From NCBI GenBank assembly GCA_030295235.1, contig AP026173.1, positions 124,001 through 188,000 of the forward strand: 64,000 nt of DNA, read 5' to 3'. Position 1 is the stretch's first letter. Each line of letters opens with the position of its first letter. This stretch comes from Fistulifera solaris. Lineage: Eukaryota. The notes beneath the pieces were generated by a model, which worked only from the letters and a program-made list of their open reading frames with translations, was not told the origin of the DNA and did no database searches. The position numbers and the translations under genes are program-made. This document shows, piece by piece, positions 7,470-15,518 of this stretch.

Positions 7470-10400
7470 ATGTCAAATAGCGCAACTCGCAAACGCAAAG
7501 CCACGCGCAGTGGATTGAAGCGATTGATGGAATTGGATCATGTGACGGTGCAAGAAACCTTTCAATTTGCTTCCGCTAACAACAATGACGAAGCCATCGG
7601 TCACGGGGCGTACATTACCGCCGTCGTGCACAACAAACGCTATTATGGGGCCATCATGGATCAAGCGACCTTACAAGTCGTAGCGCAACAACAAATGCAA
7701 GAGGAACACGACAGTTTGGCCTTGAATGAACGCATGAAACAGGCGCAAACGGCTCCCACCGCCGACTATGACGATGCCATGCCCCCGAAACCAATTCAAA
7801 AATTTCGTTACAAAGATGGATTGCGGTATCTGCTGGCAACGTATACAAACGCGGCCGCTTTGGATGTCAATCGTGACGAGATTGTCGCGGTTTGTGACGA
7901 AGGGGGTGGAATGGTGGGGCCGTTCTATTATCATTATGAAGTACGTGTGTGCTCATCGTTTGTGTGCGTTGGCTTGGTTGGCATTTTCGTACTTTCCTCG
8001 AACTTTATACTTACACCCCGCTTTCATCTCCTCGTACACAGACTCCTCCACCATCCTTGAAAGCCTCCAATGGGACTCCCGAGACACTCTATCATCCTTC
8101 CGTGGCCTTTCATTCGTTCTTGCAATCCATTTTATTGCCACCGTGGTTTCCGTTAGCTTCACAGAAAGCAACATTACCTACTTTAACAGCTCCTACGATT
8201 GTCACGAAAATGACGGCCGCTCCTTCCGTCCCACCCGATCTTTCCTTGCGTCCCATGCAACCACGTTCGCACTACAAAATTGCCATTGTGGGAGGAGGAT
8301 TAGCGGGATTGTCGTGTGCGAAACGATTGCTGATTCAAGCCAAAGAGCGGGGGATTGCGGTGCACGTTACCGTTTTGGAAGCAAGGGATCGGTGGGGTGG
8401 ACGGGTGCACACGATGCGCAGTGCGACAGTTCACAATGACGAACCTTTGATTCCACTGGATTTGGGCGCGGCGTGGATTCATGGTGTTGATCACAATCCA
8501 TTGACGCATTTGGCTTCCACATTAAATTTGGAAGTGTGTCGACCCGTGTCGGAAACGGTACAAATGTTGAATGCCAAGGGCCAACCGGTCGATAAAGCAC
8601 TCGATGAACACGTCAATCGACTATTTGATCAATTGTTGGATGTAGCTGCCGATGATTGTTGGGGAAACCCGGAAGATGCAGCGTTTTCACCCAAACCGTG
8701 GCATCCAACGGCCGTCCGTTGGTATGCACAAACCTTGCGGCAATGTACCGATAAGTTGGATATTCCTTTGGTTCCCGTTCCACCGCATCGAGAGTCGAGT
8801 GATATTTCCTTGGATTGGAGCATTGGACGAGCTTTGGTGCAAAAGAAATTGCGTGCATTTGAAAAATTGTCCGCTGAGGGTCGTTCATTGCTGTTGTGGC
8901 ATGTCAAAAACTTGGAGTACGCACTAGGAGCTAACGTCAGTGATTTGTCTATGCAGTACTGGGATATTGATGATCGGAACGCGTTTGAGGGAGATCATGT
9001 CCTCTTGCAACGTGGATTTGGATCATTGGTGGATGCATTAGTGCACGATTTACAGACGTTGGCTCCCAATCAATTCGAAGGACGTTTGTCGTGTCCGGTT
9101 CAAAAGATCGAATACGGACGGAAAACTACGACCGCACCCATTACCGCGGTCGCAACGTCCCTGCAACAACACGAACAACCACCGTTGGTGCCTTTGTCGG
9201 ATACATGTAGTGTTACGTTGGCTAATGGCGAGACGATAAATTGCGACTACGTAATTTCGGCCATACCATTGGGTGTTTTGAAACAAGCAGTGAAAGCACA
9301 GACGGCGAAAAAACCCATGATAGATAGTAGCGAGGAGAATACGATCGCTTTCGATCCGCCGTTGCCGTTTTCCAAAGAAGACGCTATTTCGAACATGGGA
9401 TTTGGCTTGCTGAATAAGTTATACTTGCATTTTGATCGAGCATTTTGGCGTACATCTTCCTCCAAAGATGTTGCCATGTTTGGGAATACCTCTTCGGTTC
9501 ATCCGCAGCATTACATGTTCACTGATGTCGGGCACATCTTGTCTCCGACGAGCAACAAGGAGGATGCCCCCGCTGTTTTAGTGTCGCTCATATCCGGACG
9601 GGATGCTGCGTTGTCGGAGATACTTCCTGAAGCTGAAGTGGTAGAACAAGCCATGGAAGTATTGCGCACTATTTTTGCTACAGATGAGGTCCCTAATCCC
9701 GCTCACTTTAAGCTAACTCATTGGGGGAAAGATCCTTATTCAAGAGGTAGCTACACATTCCTGCCACCGGGCACCACGGATCAAGACTTCACAGTGTTGC
9801 AGTCTCCGTTGAATCAGAATGGTGATTCTGTCACGCTTTCCAGCGTAGGAGAAACGATGCGCTTATTTTTCTGCGGAGAGCATACTACAGCACTACACCC
9901 CAGTCTGGCACACGGTGCCTGGTTGTCAGGCGTGCGAGCTGCCGAGCAAGTTGTGCAAACTATGACGATGGAGTTCGGAAACACGAGCAATGCAACGAAT
10001 ATAGACCGTTGGATCCCTCTGTCTTTGTATCGACACGACAATCCACAGACGGACTTAAGTTGTCATCTCTGCCACCGTAGTGGCACGACGGTTCGGGAAG
10101 GAACCCTGTTAGCCTTCGCGCGCGGGACGCGACAAGTGGTAGTCCATAACGCTTGTGCGGAATGGAGTCCGGAAGTAGAAGTAATGGAAGAACAGTGGAA
10201 GAACGTTGTGTCCTGTGTTAATCGTGCACAGCGCTTTTTGTGTTCTTTGTGCGAACGTACAGGGGCGAGTATAGGATGCTCGAATGGGAATTGTCATGCT
10301 CAGTATCATTTTCGATGTGCAGAAGATACCGGTTGGCGATTCGAAACGCAGGGAAAAGAATTTCTTTGCGGTAGACACCGAAGTGGTAATGACTGTGTTC

Positions 10401-11419
10401 GAGTGTCTCTTTCCTATTACAAGCAACAGAATCCCTGGGTATCCCATGAGCTTGTTTGCTGTTTGTGCAAGAAAATCCGGGGTGAGATGCTAGCGTTCCA
10501 ACTCAGCACACCCTCATGGTCTGCACCGCAATACGCTGTTGCTCATATCACGTGCGTACAGCACAGCAATCTGGTGGATTTGGAACTGGATCGCAGCAGT
10601 CGATTGGAGTTCGACTATCGTAAGATTGGTACCTTGCTCGAATCGGCGAGGCCTTGCAGCTTGTGTAAAAATGCAGGGGCTACGATTCGATGTCGACATT
10701 GCCATCAATGTTATCATTACGAGTGCGCTGTTTCAACCAAATGGAAATTTCACAAAAAGCGCTCGTTCTGTTGTCCGGATCATCGCTCGAATCGAATTAA
10801 TGGCACCAACCCGGCGACCCGCGCCACTTTAACTTCAGATACAGAAACACCGGCCTCGTTCTTTCAACACGCTCTCTTCTCGATGAATGACAGTTCACAT
10901 CCCCAAGAAGATATCCCTGGAAATCTTGACATTACCAATACACGATTGGAAGACATTTATGACGACAAGGAAGACGAGGATACGGAAAGTTCTTGGACGA
11001 GTGATGACGAAAGCGAATCCGATAAGAGCGAAAGACAGGAAGAAGCCGGAGAGGAGTTGCAAACGACTGCTGAAGACTCAAACGGCGGCGGTAATCCTGC
11101 GCAAAACTTGGAATGCAGTGATATTTTAACCGTGCCAGAAGAGGAGGGTCAAAGCCACTTATGTCGTCTACACCGCCAGTCGATTGGCGCTCTGTGGAAC
11201 GTCGATTTTATCGTCACACGCCGCACGGGCGGTGCATCGCTACTGCAGATTGCTGCTGCGCGCACGGATCCGTTCGACAATTTGCGCGACGGTGACACGG
11301 TCTTGGCCATTAATGGTTTACGCATTGGCGAGGCAGGATTCGATACGCTCGACCAAATTCTAGCGCGTCTTGGACAGGAAGTGGATACACTGATGGAGGT
11401 GCAGCGAAAGTCGTGGTAG
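7470..11419 (+). CDS. LSD1-like flavin amine oxidase (putative histone demethylase) with two extended PHD-type zinc-finger regions and a C-terminal PDZ-like domain; intron 7941-8041
   Basis: IAIVGGGLAGL...EARDRWGGRV FAD motif, DLGAAWIHG, GFGLLNKLYLHF, WGKDPYSRGSY, FFCGEHT...HGAWLSG. HNACAEWSPEV...CSLCERTGASIGC..C..QYHFRCA occurs twice. LRDGDTVLAING near the C-terminus. The GT-AG intron keeps frame. Confidence 0.85.
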
Positions 11420-12042
11420 CCAGTCATCAGGTTAATGGAGTAAGATGATGATTGAACAAGATGTTGTTTAGGTTACCGTCAAAGGACTCCGGACTTTTCT
11501 AGCTAGAGAGAGAGAGGGTCTCCCTAGTTTTGTGTTTGTGATATGCTACTCCGCGTTCATTACCGCTCGGTACCCGTTCCTACAAATTTCGGTCACAATG
11601 ACTGTTCTTTTTCGAGGAGAAGCACTGGAAGCTGGAAGGTTCGGGAAAAAGTGTACACTCACGTAGGCTCCCCTAGAAAAATGTACAAAGCAGAGGTGCG
11701 TTCCCGTGTCTCCCTGAACTGTCAACCCAAATGTAGTGTATGTACCGGAGAGCCTTCTACGCACTTCGTCAAGTTCCGTTTGTCTGCCTCGAACATTGGA
11801 GATTCACTCATGCGCATTCCTGCGCCGAATGCGAAAACCGACCTAGTTTGTATCGAGTGGGAAGTAGAAAGATTGACGAAAGAGAACGCACGAGAAGAAA
11901 GGGAAGGTTTTGAATCCGAACCCATCGAATAGGCCAAAACGATCCACATCCGATCAGCATTCTCACTGATCACAAAAATCAATCAACGATTTCAAGAAGA
12001 AGAAAAAAGAGAAGAAAAAAGAACGCAATTCAAAGAGCTACC

Positions 12043-15000
12043 ATGTTCAAGCCCAAGACTGTCTTGTCGCACAAAGTCCGACTATCCTACTCGGACTCCA
12101 ATCGTCTCGATCAGAAAAGTGCACCTTGGCGAAAGAATTTTGGATCCTTTCCGTCGCTGCGATCGGATGAAGACCTGGAACAAATGGGGGATGAATGGAT
12201 CATCGGCGACGCCTCCAAACTGCCAAGACTGGACGCTCCGGAAGCCTTTCCGGGCGATTGCAACGTGAAGGAGTACGTTCTGGAGCATGTGACGCCCTAC
12301 GACGGCGATGCTTCCTTCCTTGCGCCCGCGACGGACCGAACCAAGAAAACCTGGGCCCGCTGCGAAGAGCTCATGGAATTGGAACGCCAACGAGGCATTT
12401 TGGACGTAGACACCAGGATACCTTCGACGATTACAAGCCACGGACCTGGTTATGTACTGAGCAAGGACGAAGATGTTATTTACGGGTTACAAACGGAGGA
12501 GCCTTTGAAACGGGCCTGCAAGCCGTTGGGTGGCTTTAAAGTGGTGCAAGGAGCTTTGGAAAGTTACGGATACAAGGCGGATCCGGAGATGGCCAAGATT
12601 TACACGACGCAAGTTTCGACGCACAACGATACGGTCTTTAGTATGTACACCAAGGAAATGCGCGCGGCTCGTCACAGTCATTTGTTGACCGGATTACCCG
12701 ATGCCTACGGACGAGGACGTATCATTGGCGACTATCGTCGACTCGCTCTTTATGGAACCGATGATTTGATTCGACGCAAGAAGCTGGACTACGATGCACT
12801 CAAAGGTACCGCCACGGAAACAATGCAACTCCGATCGGAAATCACACAACAAGTGAAAGGGTTGAAAGAGCTTACCGTCATGTCCGATGCGTACGGTGTG
12901 GATGTTCGAAAGCCCGCGAAAACGTTTAAGGAAGCGGTTCAGTTTATGTGGTTAGGTCATACTGCGGCATTGAAGCAGCAAGACGGAGCTGCCATGTCCA
13001 TTGGACGTTGGGATGCCTTTTGGATATTTATGCGGAGAAGGATCTAGCAGAGGGAATCGTGACGGAGCAGGAGATACAAGAGATTATTGACGATGTGGTG
13101 ATCAAGATGCGACTGGTCCGCCACTTGCGTCCTCCTGCATACAATGAGCTGTTTTCCGGCGATCCGACTTGGCTGACGATTGCTTTGGGTGGCTGCAAAG
13201 AAGATGGCACGAGTCTAGTCACCAAGACTTCCTATCGCTTCTTGCATACCCTTACGAATTTAGGTCCTGCTCCTGAGCCCAACTTGACAGTGCTTTGGTC
13301 TCAAAACTTGCCTAACAACTTCAAGGAATACTGCGCTCAGCAATCCATTGACACGTCGTCCATTCAGTACGAGAACGACGATATGATGCGACAAGTATTT
13401 GGCTGTGACTACGGCATCGCGTGTTGCGTGTCAGGTATGCGTATTGGAGTTGACATGCAATTTTTCGGTGCAAGAACCAACATGGTGAAGCTTTTGCTCA
13501 TGTGCTTGAACGGCGGTAGAGATGAAATGCACGGTGATAAATTGTGCCACGATCTTGAAGCCGAATGCGCGAAACTGGGAATTGGAAAAGGCGACGAAGA
13601 CAGACCCATCAGCTATGAGCAAATTGAACGGCTGTACTTTGACATCGCTATGCCGTGGATGGCCAAGCTGTACGCTGAGACGATGAATACAATCCACTAT
13701 TCACATGATCGTGCTTGCTACGAAAACTTGCAAATGGCATTACACAACTCCAATGTGAACCGCTTGATGGCTTTTGGATGCGCTGGACTCTCGGTTGTCG
13801 CGGACTCCCTGGCCGCAATCAAGTATGATGACGTCTTCCCCGTTCGTAACGAGGCGGGTCTTACGGTCGGCTTTCGCCGTGCACACCCCAATCGAGAGAT
13901 TCCTCAGTTCGGCAACGATGACGACCGTGTGGACTCTCTGGCGGTCCGTGTTTGCTCTCGATTTTACGATGAACTGAACAAGCAACCTTTGTACCGCAAT
14001 GCAAAAGCCACGCTTTCTATTTTGACCATTACGTCCAACTTGGTCTACGGCAAGGCAACGGGGGCGAGTCCAGATGGACGTGTCGCTGGAGAGTCCTTCG
14101 CGCCTGGTTGCAATCCAATGCACGGTCGTGATAAGAACGGAGCTTTGGCATCTCTAAGTTCGGTCACAAAGATTCCGTACGCCAAGTGTATGGATGGAGT
14201 TTCCAATACATTCTGTCTGTTGCCGAACGCGTTGGGACAACCAAAGAATCGGAAATCCAATTTGGCTACCCTCTTGGACGGCTACTTCGCGCACAACGGT
14301 CATCACATCAATATTAACGTCTTGAGCCGAGATATATTGAGGGATGCACATCTTCACCCCGAGAAGTATCCCAATTTGACCATTCGGGTGAGTGGTTACG
14401 CCGTTCGCTTCTGCCGTCTTACTCCCGAGCAGCGTGAGGGAAGTGATGGCGCGCACCATGCACTCCTCCAGTGTCGTCACCATGGCCCACACCGACAAAA
14501 ATCACGAGTTGTACGGCTTCGATGATATGGAAGAAAAGAAACAAGAAGAACTTCACATCGAAGAGATGGAAGGTGTGATTGAAGGCAATGCAGTATTGGG
14601 TAGTGTTTACTCGTTCGAAACGTTTTCGACAACGGATGGACCTGGAATTCGAACGAACGTCTTCTTGCAAGGTTGCCCCAAGAAATGTACCTTTTGTTGC
14701 AACCCAGAGACACAAGCTCTGGCCAACCCCAAGGATCATCCGGAATTTGCCATGTCTTCGGCAGAAGTGGCTTCGTTGGTCAGCAAATACTCGGAATGGC
14801 TCAAGCCGCGCGGTGGCGGAATCACCGTTTCGGGAGGAGAAGCTTTGGTGCAGCCTGATTTCGTCAGCGACTTGTTCCAAAAGATTCACGAGGAAGGCTT
14901 GACCACTTGTTTAGACACAGCCTGCTTTGGCAACAAGGCCCGTTGGGACAAGGTGCTACCTCACACCGACAACGTCTTGTTGTGTATGAAAGGCATGGAC

Positions 15001-15366
15001 AACGATGTGGCTGCCAGTGTTGCTCGGGTATCCCCTGCGGAGATGCAGAAATCGAAAGACTTCGCCCGATACATCCGAGACTCCTATCCCAACATTCGCA
15101 TTACGTTACGTTGGGTGCTGTTGAAGGGTATCACCGACACGGATAGTGAATTGGACGCGCTCGCAGCGTTCGCGAAGGAACTCGGGCCCGTGTTCCATAC
15201 CATCGAGTTGATTCCTTACCATGAGTTGGGCCGCGAAAAGTACGACGCGTTGGAGTGGGAGTATCCTTTGCAAGATATGACGTCCTACAAGAAAGAAGAC
15301 GCACAGCGTGTTCAAGAACGATTGCTGAATGCACAGGTGGCGACTATTTTGAGCAACGTTGCTTAA
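12043..15366 (+). CDS. pflB-pflA: Pyruvate formate-lyase fused to PFL-activating enzyme (radical SAM), ~1100 aa, intronless; apparent frameshifts at T-run 13018-13021 and G-run 14438-14440
   Basis: [28 protein letters not shown], catalytic IACCVS, glycyl-radical loop [10 protein letters not shown]. Activase: [20 protein letters not shown] (CxxxCxxC), [26 protein letters not shown]. The PFL terminal helix (EVMARTMH) lies in the activase frame with no stop between. Confidence 0.88.
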
Positions 15367-15518
15367 CAAGGCGACGACCAATTTGAAGTGTAGTTATTGT
15401 GGAAGTAATGCATATAAATATTGAAAACAGACTTTCATTTAGTTGATAACCTCTGTTTCCATCCCATGCATGTTTTTCTTTATCATTACATCCTTTTCGT
15501 ATTCTGATCTCAGTTCGA

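Follow-up and report, generated by a model that had tools for sequence, protein, structure and literature searches.

At issue in this locus is whether the diatom Fistulifera solaris makes pyruvate formate-lyase (PFL) and its radical S-adenosylmethionine (SAM) activating enzyme as one polypeptide, and how such a chain would work. The gene lies on the forward strand of a 64,000-nucleotide stretch of contig AP026173.1 (hereafter the window, to which all positions refer). As assembled, it is broken into three overlapping plus-strand frames (11914-13047, 12930-14525 and 14392-15366). The first matches the N-terminal third of PFL, the second its remainder including the glycyl-radical domain, and the third the radical-SAM activase. 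A sequence-only reading of the window had proposed that the PFL and activase parts form a single chain. The comparisons described here establish that the two one-nucleotide homopolymer shifts are compensating assembly errors and that one reading frame encodes PFL, a 40-residue linker and the activase (Table 1). With a probability of roughly 60%, the tethered activase would activate PFL mostly in cis or within the dimer, giving a fermentation enzyme that is switched fast.

The two shifts were compared with short-read contigs from four runs (X1, X2, X3 and X5, out of eight listed). In all four, a T is inserted behind 13017 and one base is absent at 14438, and the depth carrying the deletion at 14438 equals the total depth. 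A 488-nucleotide contig from X1 carries the T and is otherwise identical to the window, so the correction applies to the window copy. The X5 contig that spans 14438 has letters unlike either gene copy; this third allele likewise lacks the extra G. The second gene copy, on contig C29 of the 51.7-Mb, 62-contig genome (93% identity), also has no extra G and contains an 834-codon open frame that crosses from PFL over the linker and takes in the activase to its end, with the T loss present. Finally, the three window pieces align to the F. solaris protein GAX28273.1 (1,107 residues) with no mismatches over 325 + 472 + 307 residues (1,104). The 3,324-nucleotide span in the window equals the coding sequence length of this record, so the gene is intronless. 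In agreement with the sequence-only reading, removal of one G at 14438-14440 thus joins PFL to the activase in a single chain, and the proposed read comparison over 13018-13021 and 14438-14440 restores the T and removes the G. The absence of introns over 3.3 kb is also borne out. It is not a distinctive feature of this gene, as the upstream neighbour too has an unbroken 1,159-codon frame. Runs X1-X3 were taken as RNA by guess, and contigs drop rare variants. X3 shows A-tails at 15427 and 15437, a sign of RNA, and in both X1 and X3 a CT..AC stretch of the adjacent minus-strand gene is missing. Coverage in X1-X3 begins near 11990; the DNA run extends further upstream.

Both halves were compared with known families and motifs. 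The PFL half has the PFL fold and scores above the cut-offs of Pfam PF02901 and PF01228. Its best family by far is the bacterial PFL1 equivalog TIGR01255 at 958.8 bits, below the cut-off of 994.2, which the Euglena fusion clears with 1013.8 bits; the F. solaris protein is therefore not assigned to this equivalog. The best family of the activase half is the PflA equivalog TIGR02493 (199.5 bits, positions 2-231 of 235, below the cut-off of 231.75), and a single stretch (residues 851-1092) aligns to PflA 2-234, without a ferredoxin-like insertion. The IACCVS motif (13416-13433), the RVSGY loop, the linker and CPKKCTFC were all located in the window where they had been placed from the letters.

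To place the chain among its relatives, the junction plus activase was searched against proteins of 429-1,365 residues. Among the best 120 of 1,949 matches, a glycyl motif is followed by CxxxCxxC in 103 (102 by a stricter motif). Eight more run through the linker and break off within the first part of the activase, the pattern that an intron would leave in a gene call (P0104-P0108, P0110, P0112 and P0113). Named fusions occur in the diatoms Epithemia, Seminavis, Cyclostephanos, Thalassiosira spp., Cyclotella and Conticribra and, beyond diatoms, in Prymnesium parvum, Chromera velia, Polarella glacialis, a cluster with Amphidinium fragments, Euglena gracilis and E. longa. The F. solaris chain is 76-82% identical to the fused proteins of other diatoms and further relatives. 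Judged from these sequences, the sequence-only reading, which had suggested a search for fused orthologs, underrated both the age and the spread of this old fusion. The named records compared are annotated only as formate C-acetyltransferase or hypothetical protein, or are split, and such annotation hides the fusion. A search of a 50%-identity library added little.

In 72 of 72 aligned fusions, C461, C462, G785, R478, W377, F475, D865, R870 and C878/882/885 are kept, as are G931 and G932. R226 is present in all 71 rows that have a residue at this position, and E933 in 68 of 72 (D in four). R226/R478 and W377/F475 are the counterparts of E. coli Arg176/Arg435 and Trp333/Phe432, which we take to be the pyruvate-binding residues. 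Linkers are 21-135 residues long (median 34), and none is shorter than 21. The acidic linker noted from the window is acidic here; across the family the net charge varies, with 64 of 103 linkers acidic and 23 basic, and acidity as a functional feature was rejected, as it is not conserved. Stand-alone activases of the fusion type were also considered and rejected. Of 54 short top matches, a PFL tail motif occurs in 26, and most others begin in mid-linker or mid-domain (partly by eye); all are read as probable fragments. Two kinds of unusual protein were seen in the course of this survey. P0114, P0277 and P0278 (776-778 residues, from MMETSP and JGI) are PFL-only, nested in the fusion clade and sister to the Amphidinium-cluster fusion. 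P0111 (1,000 residues, a single-member cluster from a 98,990-bp ENA contig), known from its protein sequence, is a fusion in reverse order: a ferredoxin-type glycyl-radical activase (residues 6-291, above the TIGR02494 cut-off) precedes a PFL2/dehydratase-type enzyme (residues 385-998).

Trees of both halves place each as one clade among eukaryotic forms, which supports one fusion lineage and not a bacterial placement. PFL trees from FastTree (67 rows) and IQ-TREE (45 of these; 22 were dropped, including a long viral branch) agree. The fusions, with the PFL-only P0114 among them, form one clade (100/100 in IQ-TREE) that groups with unfused Monoraphidium, Caulerpa, Bigelowiella and other proteins (100/99); all 16 bacterial rows lie outside this group. 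Among the 57 rows of the activase tree (built by a quick search), all 24 fused halves fall in one clade (99 by the Shimodaira-Hasegawa-like approximate likelihood-ratio test, SH-aLRT), which is joined to stand-alone eukaryote-type activases (96). P0217, labelled bacterial beforehand, falls among the latter. Within the reach of these trees, a single fusion event in eukaryotes joined PFL and activase genes that had stood alone, and P0114 looks like a secondary loss of the activase, as do P0277 and P0278. That the fusion is scattered over Euglena, haptophytes, alveolates and diatoms suggests that it was passed between eukaryotes or lost many times. The bacterial origin first proposed for the enzyme holds only remotely, for the ultimate ancestry of the stand-alone genes, whereas both halves of the fusion group with eukaryotic stand-alone forms. 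Such deep bacterial ancestry agrees with the title of Stairs et al. 2011. A recent bacterial transfer into F. solaris is rejected on the strength of both trees and of the identity to other diatoms' fusions.

Gene neighbourhoods were compared in prokaryotes at the best 80 of 577 confirmed loci. The pflA gene lies just downstream of pflB on the same strand at 57 of these, on the other strand at two, and was not found in the fetched flank at 21; none of the 80 carries a PFL-activase fusion. Among eukaryotes, the Caulerpa genes g5733 (activase, P0206) and g5734 (PFL, P0467; species inferred from the numbering) have consecutive numbers, which suggests unfused genes as neighbours, a possible precursor of the fusion. 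The PFL of Tetraselmis virus 1 (P0298) forms a long branch and has the glycyl loop CVSGN rather than RVSGY.

In the F. solaris genome, an activase search returned two matches, both from the fusion gene pair, and found no free activase. A search with the PF01228 Gly_radical domain likewise scored two candidates, both of them the fusion copies, and found no spare part of the GrcA/YfiD type. Between the two copies, synonymous changed codons far outnumber non-synonymous ones in PFL (59:8 and 86:9) and in the activase (44:11), so both halves are under purifying selection; in the acidic part of the linker the ratio is 3:4. The genome also carries AdhE, a PFO-type gene, FNT formate/nitrite transporters and a CoA-transferase-like gene; a search for acetate kinase gave no match, which does not establish its absence.

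The predicted structure bears on how the two halves are arranged. An AlphaFold2 model of the whole chain (72-row alignment) has a mean predicted local distance difference test score (pLDDT) of 84.5 and a predicted template modelling score (pTM) of 0.87, with the extension and linker disordered and the PFL half in its closed form. By a TM-formula estimate, an unplaced activase would give a pTM of ~0.69 against the 0.87 observed, and the model fixes the activase to ~4 Å. When the halves were folded as separate chains, the score was 0.75, against 0.00 for the best of three controls; at least 94% of contacts agree in these runs, and partner pLDDT is at least 86. Among microbial pairs, 116 of 157 solved ones reach this score mark, versus 2 of 215 that are mismatched; among eukaryotic pairs, 39 of 65 without a like complex do so, versus 2 of 126 unrelated ones. 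These counts hold only roughly here because a custom alignment was used. The predicted interface pairs PFL residues 626, 699-706, 730-751 and 807 with activase residues 858-871, 915-923 and 1102. His807, at the PFL C-terminus, sits in this interface directly before the linker, so a tether in cis can reach. Both predictors thus dock the activase on closed PFL beside the PFL C-terminus, a pose that would fit activation in cis. None of 40 matched PDB sequences spans both halves. According to PMC9326890, docking of full PFL to its activase gave no reasonable activation complex.

The N-terminal extension had been read as ~65 basic residues. Its first 41 residues are basic (9 K/R versus 2 D/E); the whole of residues 1-66 is not (11 versus 10). 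Two motifs, LSYSD (residues 14-18, 12082-12096) and RKNFGSFPS (residues 30-38, 12130-12156), stand out in this otherwise variable extension and recur among 31 long proteins that have one, as an RxNHGSFP-like motif in 13 and an LSYSE-like motif in 9, counts that include close relatives of the query. As a guess, they might be phosphorylation or binding sites. In P0050 a signal-like leader precedes the RxNHGSFP-like motif, which would thus probably remain in the mature protein. Bipartite plastid presequences of diatoms consist of a signal peptide followed by an ASAFAP-like site. In the F. solaris leader no hydrophobic signal of this kind was found (top 9-residue hydropathy 0.32 in the first 35 residues). 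Mitochondrial presequences are basic, amphipathic leaders that are cleaved on import; the first 41 residues are basic, but the extension holds conserved internal motifs, and the protein may reside in the cytosol or the mitochondrion. The leaders of P0050, P0079, P0089 and P0135, by contrast, have hydropathies of 2.0-2.9 and are signal-peptide- and ASAFAP-like, and these sequences suggest that an O2-sensitive enzyme is targeted to plastids in some diatoms.

Table 1 Features of the PFL-activase gene in the window.
Feature	Position	Strand	Remarks
Single-chain PFL-activase coding sequence	12043..15366	+	Intronless; 1,107 residues, 124 kDa; pieces equal GAX28273.1; span equals its coding sequence length; two 1-nucleotide assembly errors inside
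N-terminal extension, residues 1-66	12043..12240	+	Low pLDDT; first 41 residues basic; without hydrophobic signal
PFL domain, PflB type, residues ~71-810	12253..14472	+	TIGR01255 positions 13-742 of 744; model root-mean-square deviation 1.6 Å to 2pfl
Assembly error 1, TTTT	13018..13021	+	One T short versus short-read contigs; also in C29 copy
Catalytic Cys461-Cys462	13422..13427	+	E. coli C418/C419; 72 of 72 aligned fusions
Glycyl loop RVSGY, Gly785	14385..14399	+	E. coli G734; predicted O2 cleavage site
Assembly error 2, GGG	14438..14440	+	One G too many versus short-read contigs, C29 copy and GAX28273.1
Acidic linker, 40 residues (811-850)	14473..14592	+	Low pLDDT
PFL-activase domain, residues 851-1107	14593..15363	+	DGPGIR, CxxxCxxC and GGE motifs
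CxxxCxxC (CPKKCTFC), C878/882/885	14674-14697	+	Motif in activase domain
GGE motif of activase	within 14830-14844	+	
Poly(A) addition sites	15427..15437	+	~60-70 nucleotides 3' of stop; run X3 A-tails behind 15427 and 15437

Other observations concern the surroundings of the gene. The upstream neighbour (7940-11419, plus strand) resembles, by eye, an LSD1-like flavin amine oxidase with Cys/His-rich PHD-like fingers. Other genes of the assembly are frameshifted in a similar way, AdhE among them: two AdhE-like bifunctional aldehyde/alcohol dehydrogenases (L091, G000:C10:124797-128165; L092, G000:C9:109032-112427) lie in many frame pieces, which probably reflect further assembly indels plus introns. 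In L089 and L090 (G000:C34 and C35), a GNAT (Pat-like) acetyltransferase domain lies behind a CoA-transferase/acetyl-CoA hydrolase-like gene. Some contigs of run X5, a wetland metagenome, are identical to the window copy and others differ from it by ~7-10%, so on sequence a very close relative of F. solaris occurs in that wetland.

In known systems (PMC8683613, PMC13450708), activation begins when the glycyl loop swings into the activase, where it receives the radical; O2 breaks the polypeptide at that glycine. For F. solaris, a nuclear gene would be translated as one chain of PFL and radical-SAM activase, and the linker-held activase would park on the outer helices of closed PFL, beside the glycyl-radical domain. 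As O2 falls, the [4Fe-4S] cluster of the activase would be reduced and SAM cleaved; the glycyl loop would flip into the activase site, and the Gly785 radical would form mostly in cis or within the dimer. PFL would then convert pyruvate and CoA to formate and acetyl-CoA via Cys461/462, and AdhE would convert acetyl-CoA to ethanol. The tether would allow quick activation at each oxic-to-anoxic shift and would bring both halves to one compartment. On return of O2, the activated chain would be cut at Gly785, with products of ~88 and 36 kDa predicted from E. coli chemistry, the smaller of which would carry the activase. Cut PFL would have to be replaced, because no GrcA-type spare part was found.

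Several points weigh against this reading. The predicted interface excludes Gly785, which indicates a docked or parked pose rather than the activation complex. Its residues are conserved in bacterial PflB and PflA too, and no more so than background (0.76 versus 0.80 and 0.70 versus 0.69), so the pose is probably ancestral rather than fusion-specific, and silent on cis versus trans. An interface that is a fusion-specific innovation was rejected, as core residues are also kept in bacterial pairs. The halves of a textbook pair may also pass the separate-chain comparison by likeness to solved structures. Linker length and charge vary widely, the PFL-only P0114 is nested within the fusion clade, and RNA contigs cannot prove a single transcript. 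In E. coli, an activase:PFL ratio of 1:1 gives fast installation but also speeds radical loss, according to PMC13450708. In T. pseudonana, excerpts of bioRxiv 10.64898/2026.07.20.739533 describe PFL abundance as little changed in anoxia and alanine fermentation as central. The case is built from sequence and predicted structure.

In one rival reading the chain is real and the fusion serves co-expression and co-targeting only, through one promoter and one presequence, with the activase acting in trans on whichever PFL subunit and no kinetic gain. Linkers of 21-135 residues that may be acidic or basic, ancestral docking residues, a PFL-only derivative and the signal-peptide-like leaders (Kyte-Doolittle hydropathy 2.0-2.9) of several orthologs would all suit it. 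Retention of the fusion from Euglena to diatoms, the lack of any linker shorter than 21 residues (0 of 103) and the PFL C-terminus at the predicted interface argue the other way, and action purely in trans seems unlikely. A polyprotein, whose disordered linker would be cleaved once the chain is translated or imported to give ordinary PFL and free activase, is improbable: it would fit the low pLDDT of the linker and avoid the shortened radical life expected of a permanent 1:1 activase, but no conserved cleavage-like motif was seen by eye in the linkers inspected. That the locus holds two genes or a pseudogene is scarcely credible. The assembly does contain both shifts and, were GGG real, PFL would end at 14525 and the activase could begin at an internal ATG such as 14527 (in-frame ATGs also lie at 14446, 14458, 14482 and 14566). 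Separate genes are refuted by the four runs without the G and with the T, by the in-frame C29 copy and by the identical, unbroken GAX28273.1; the 103 fused homologs, 44 of which have linkers without Met, also argue against them. Activation mostly in cis or within the dimer is preferred. An extension of it is conceivable, if doubtful, in which diatoms, haptophytes, chromerids, dinoflagellates and euglenids share a single-origin, as yet undescribed family of self-activating glycyl radical enzymes: the radical would be installed in cis, the parked pose would avoid 1:1 radical loss, and the freed 36-kDa activase would serve surviving PFL.

Such fusions may have been mentioned in passing for a few algae, and the odds of an earlier published mention are about even. 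The literature found on PFL, whose coverage stops short of Stairs et al. 2011, Hampl et al. 2011 and Atteia et al. 2013, does not state a PFL-activase fusion, and no functional study of one was found in the literature searched. A 2026 review of glycyl radical enzymes (PMC13450708) gave no match for 'fused', 'fusion', 'linker', 'algae' or 'diatom'. According to this June 2026 review, structural knowledge of how glycyl radical enzymes are activated comes solely from a complex with a 7-mer peptide, and the return of the glycyl loop is not understood. A natural, covalent 1:1 pair found across algal phyla is a direct tool for cryo-electron microscopy and kinetics, and makes the activation complex and the 1:1 stoichiometry problem testable. 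The faster loss of the radical that E. coli shows at a 1:1 ratio is both the main difficulty and the main interest of the fusion. If the family extension were true, the protein would be a natural trap for the unsolved enzyme-activase complex. A further use might lie in engineering formate assimilation, where a single gene could supply a PFL that activates itself. A four-genome diatom survey, as cited in PMC10407231, found PFL only in T. pseudonana; the present sequences suggest that genes for formate fermentation are far more frequent among diatoms.

Compared with known systems, the F. solaris protein is a variant and not a new kind of chemistry, and its sequences are already public. The PFL half matches E. 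coli PflB (PDB IDs: 1h16, 2pfl; E = 5.8e-237, residues 71-808, 50% identity) with the same catalytic residues, and the activase half matches E. coli PflA (PDB IDs: 3c8f, 3cb8; E = 2.4e-41, residues 851-1092). In contrast to the two separate E. coli polypeptides, F. solaris has one frame, a fixed 1:1 ratio, no other activase match in its genome and no counterpart found there of the GrcA/YfiD spare part. The Bacillota pflB-pflA operons share the gene order of the fusion (57 of the best 80 loci), with PFL identities of 53-59% and activase identities of ~29-44%; they are unfused (0 of 80) and fall outside the eukaryote-type clade. In T. pseudonana, the activase Thaps3|263830, listed in excerpts of the PMC8003979 supplement as a stand-alone activase without Met, resembles by eye the activase half of fused centric-diatom proteins (P0135, P0086) and probably represents the same fusion, split in the gene model. 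The nearest unfused relatives in both trees are the stand-alone eukaryotic enzymes of Chlamydomonas (PFL1/PFLA), Caulerpa (g5734/g5733), Monoraphidium and Bigelowiella. In Chlamydomonas, formate fermentation via PFL in dark anoxia is established (passages of PMC3660698 and PMC8003979) and, unlike in the fusion, PFL and activase are encoded by separate genes, the activase being expressed far below PFL (part of PMC6732389).

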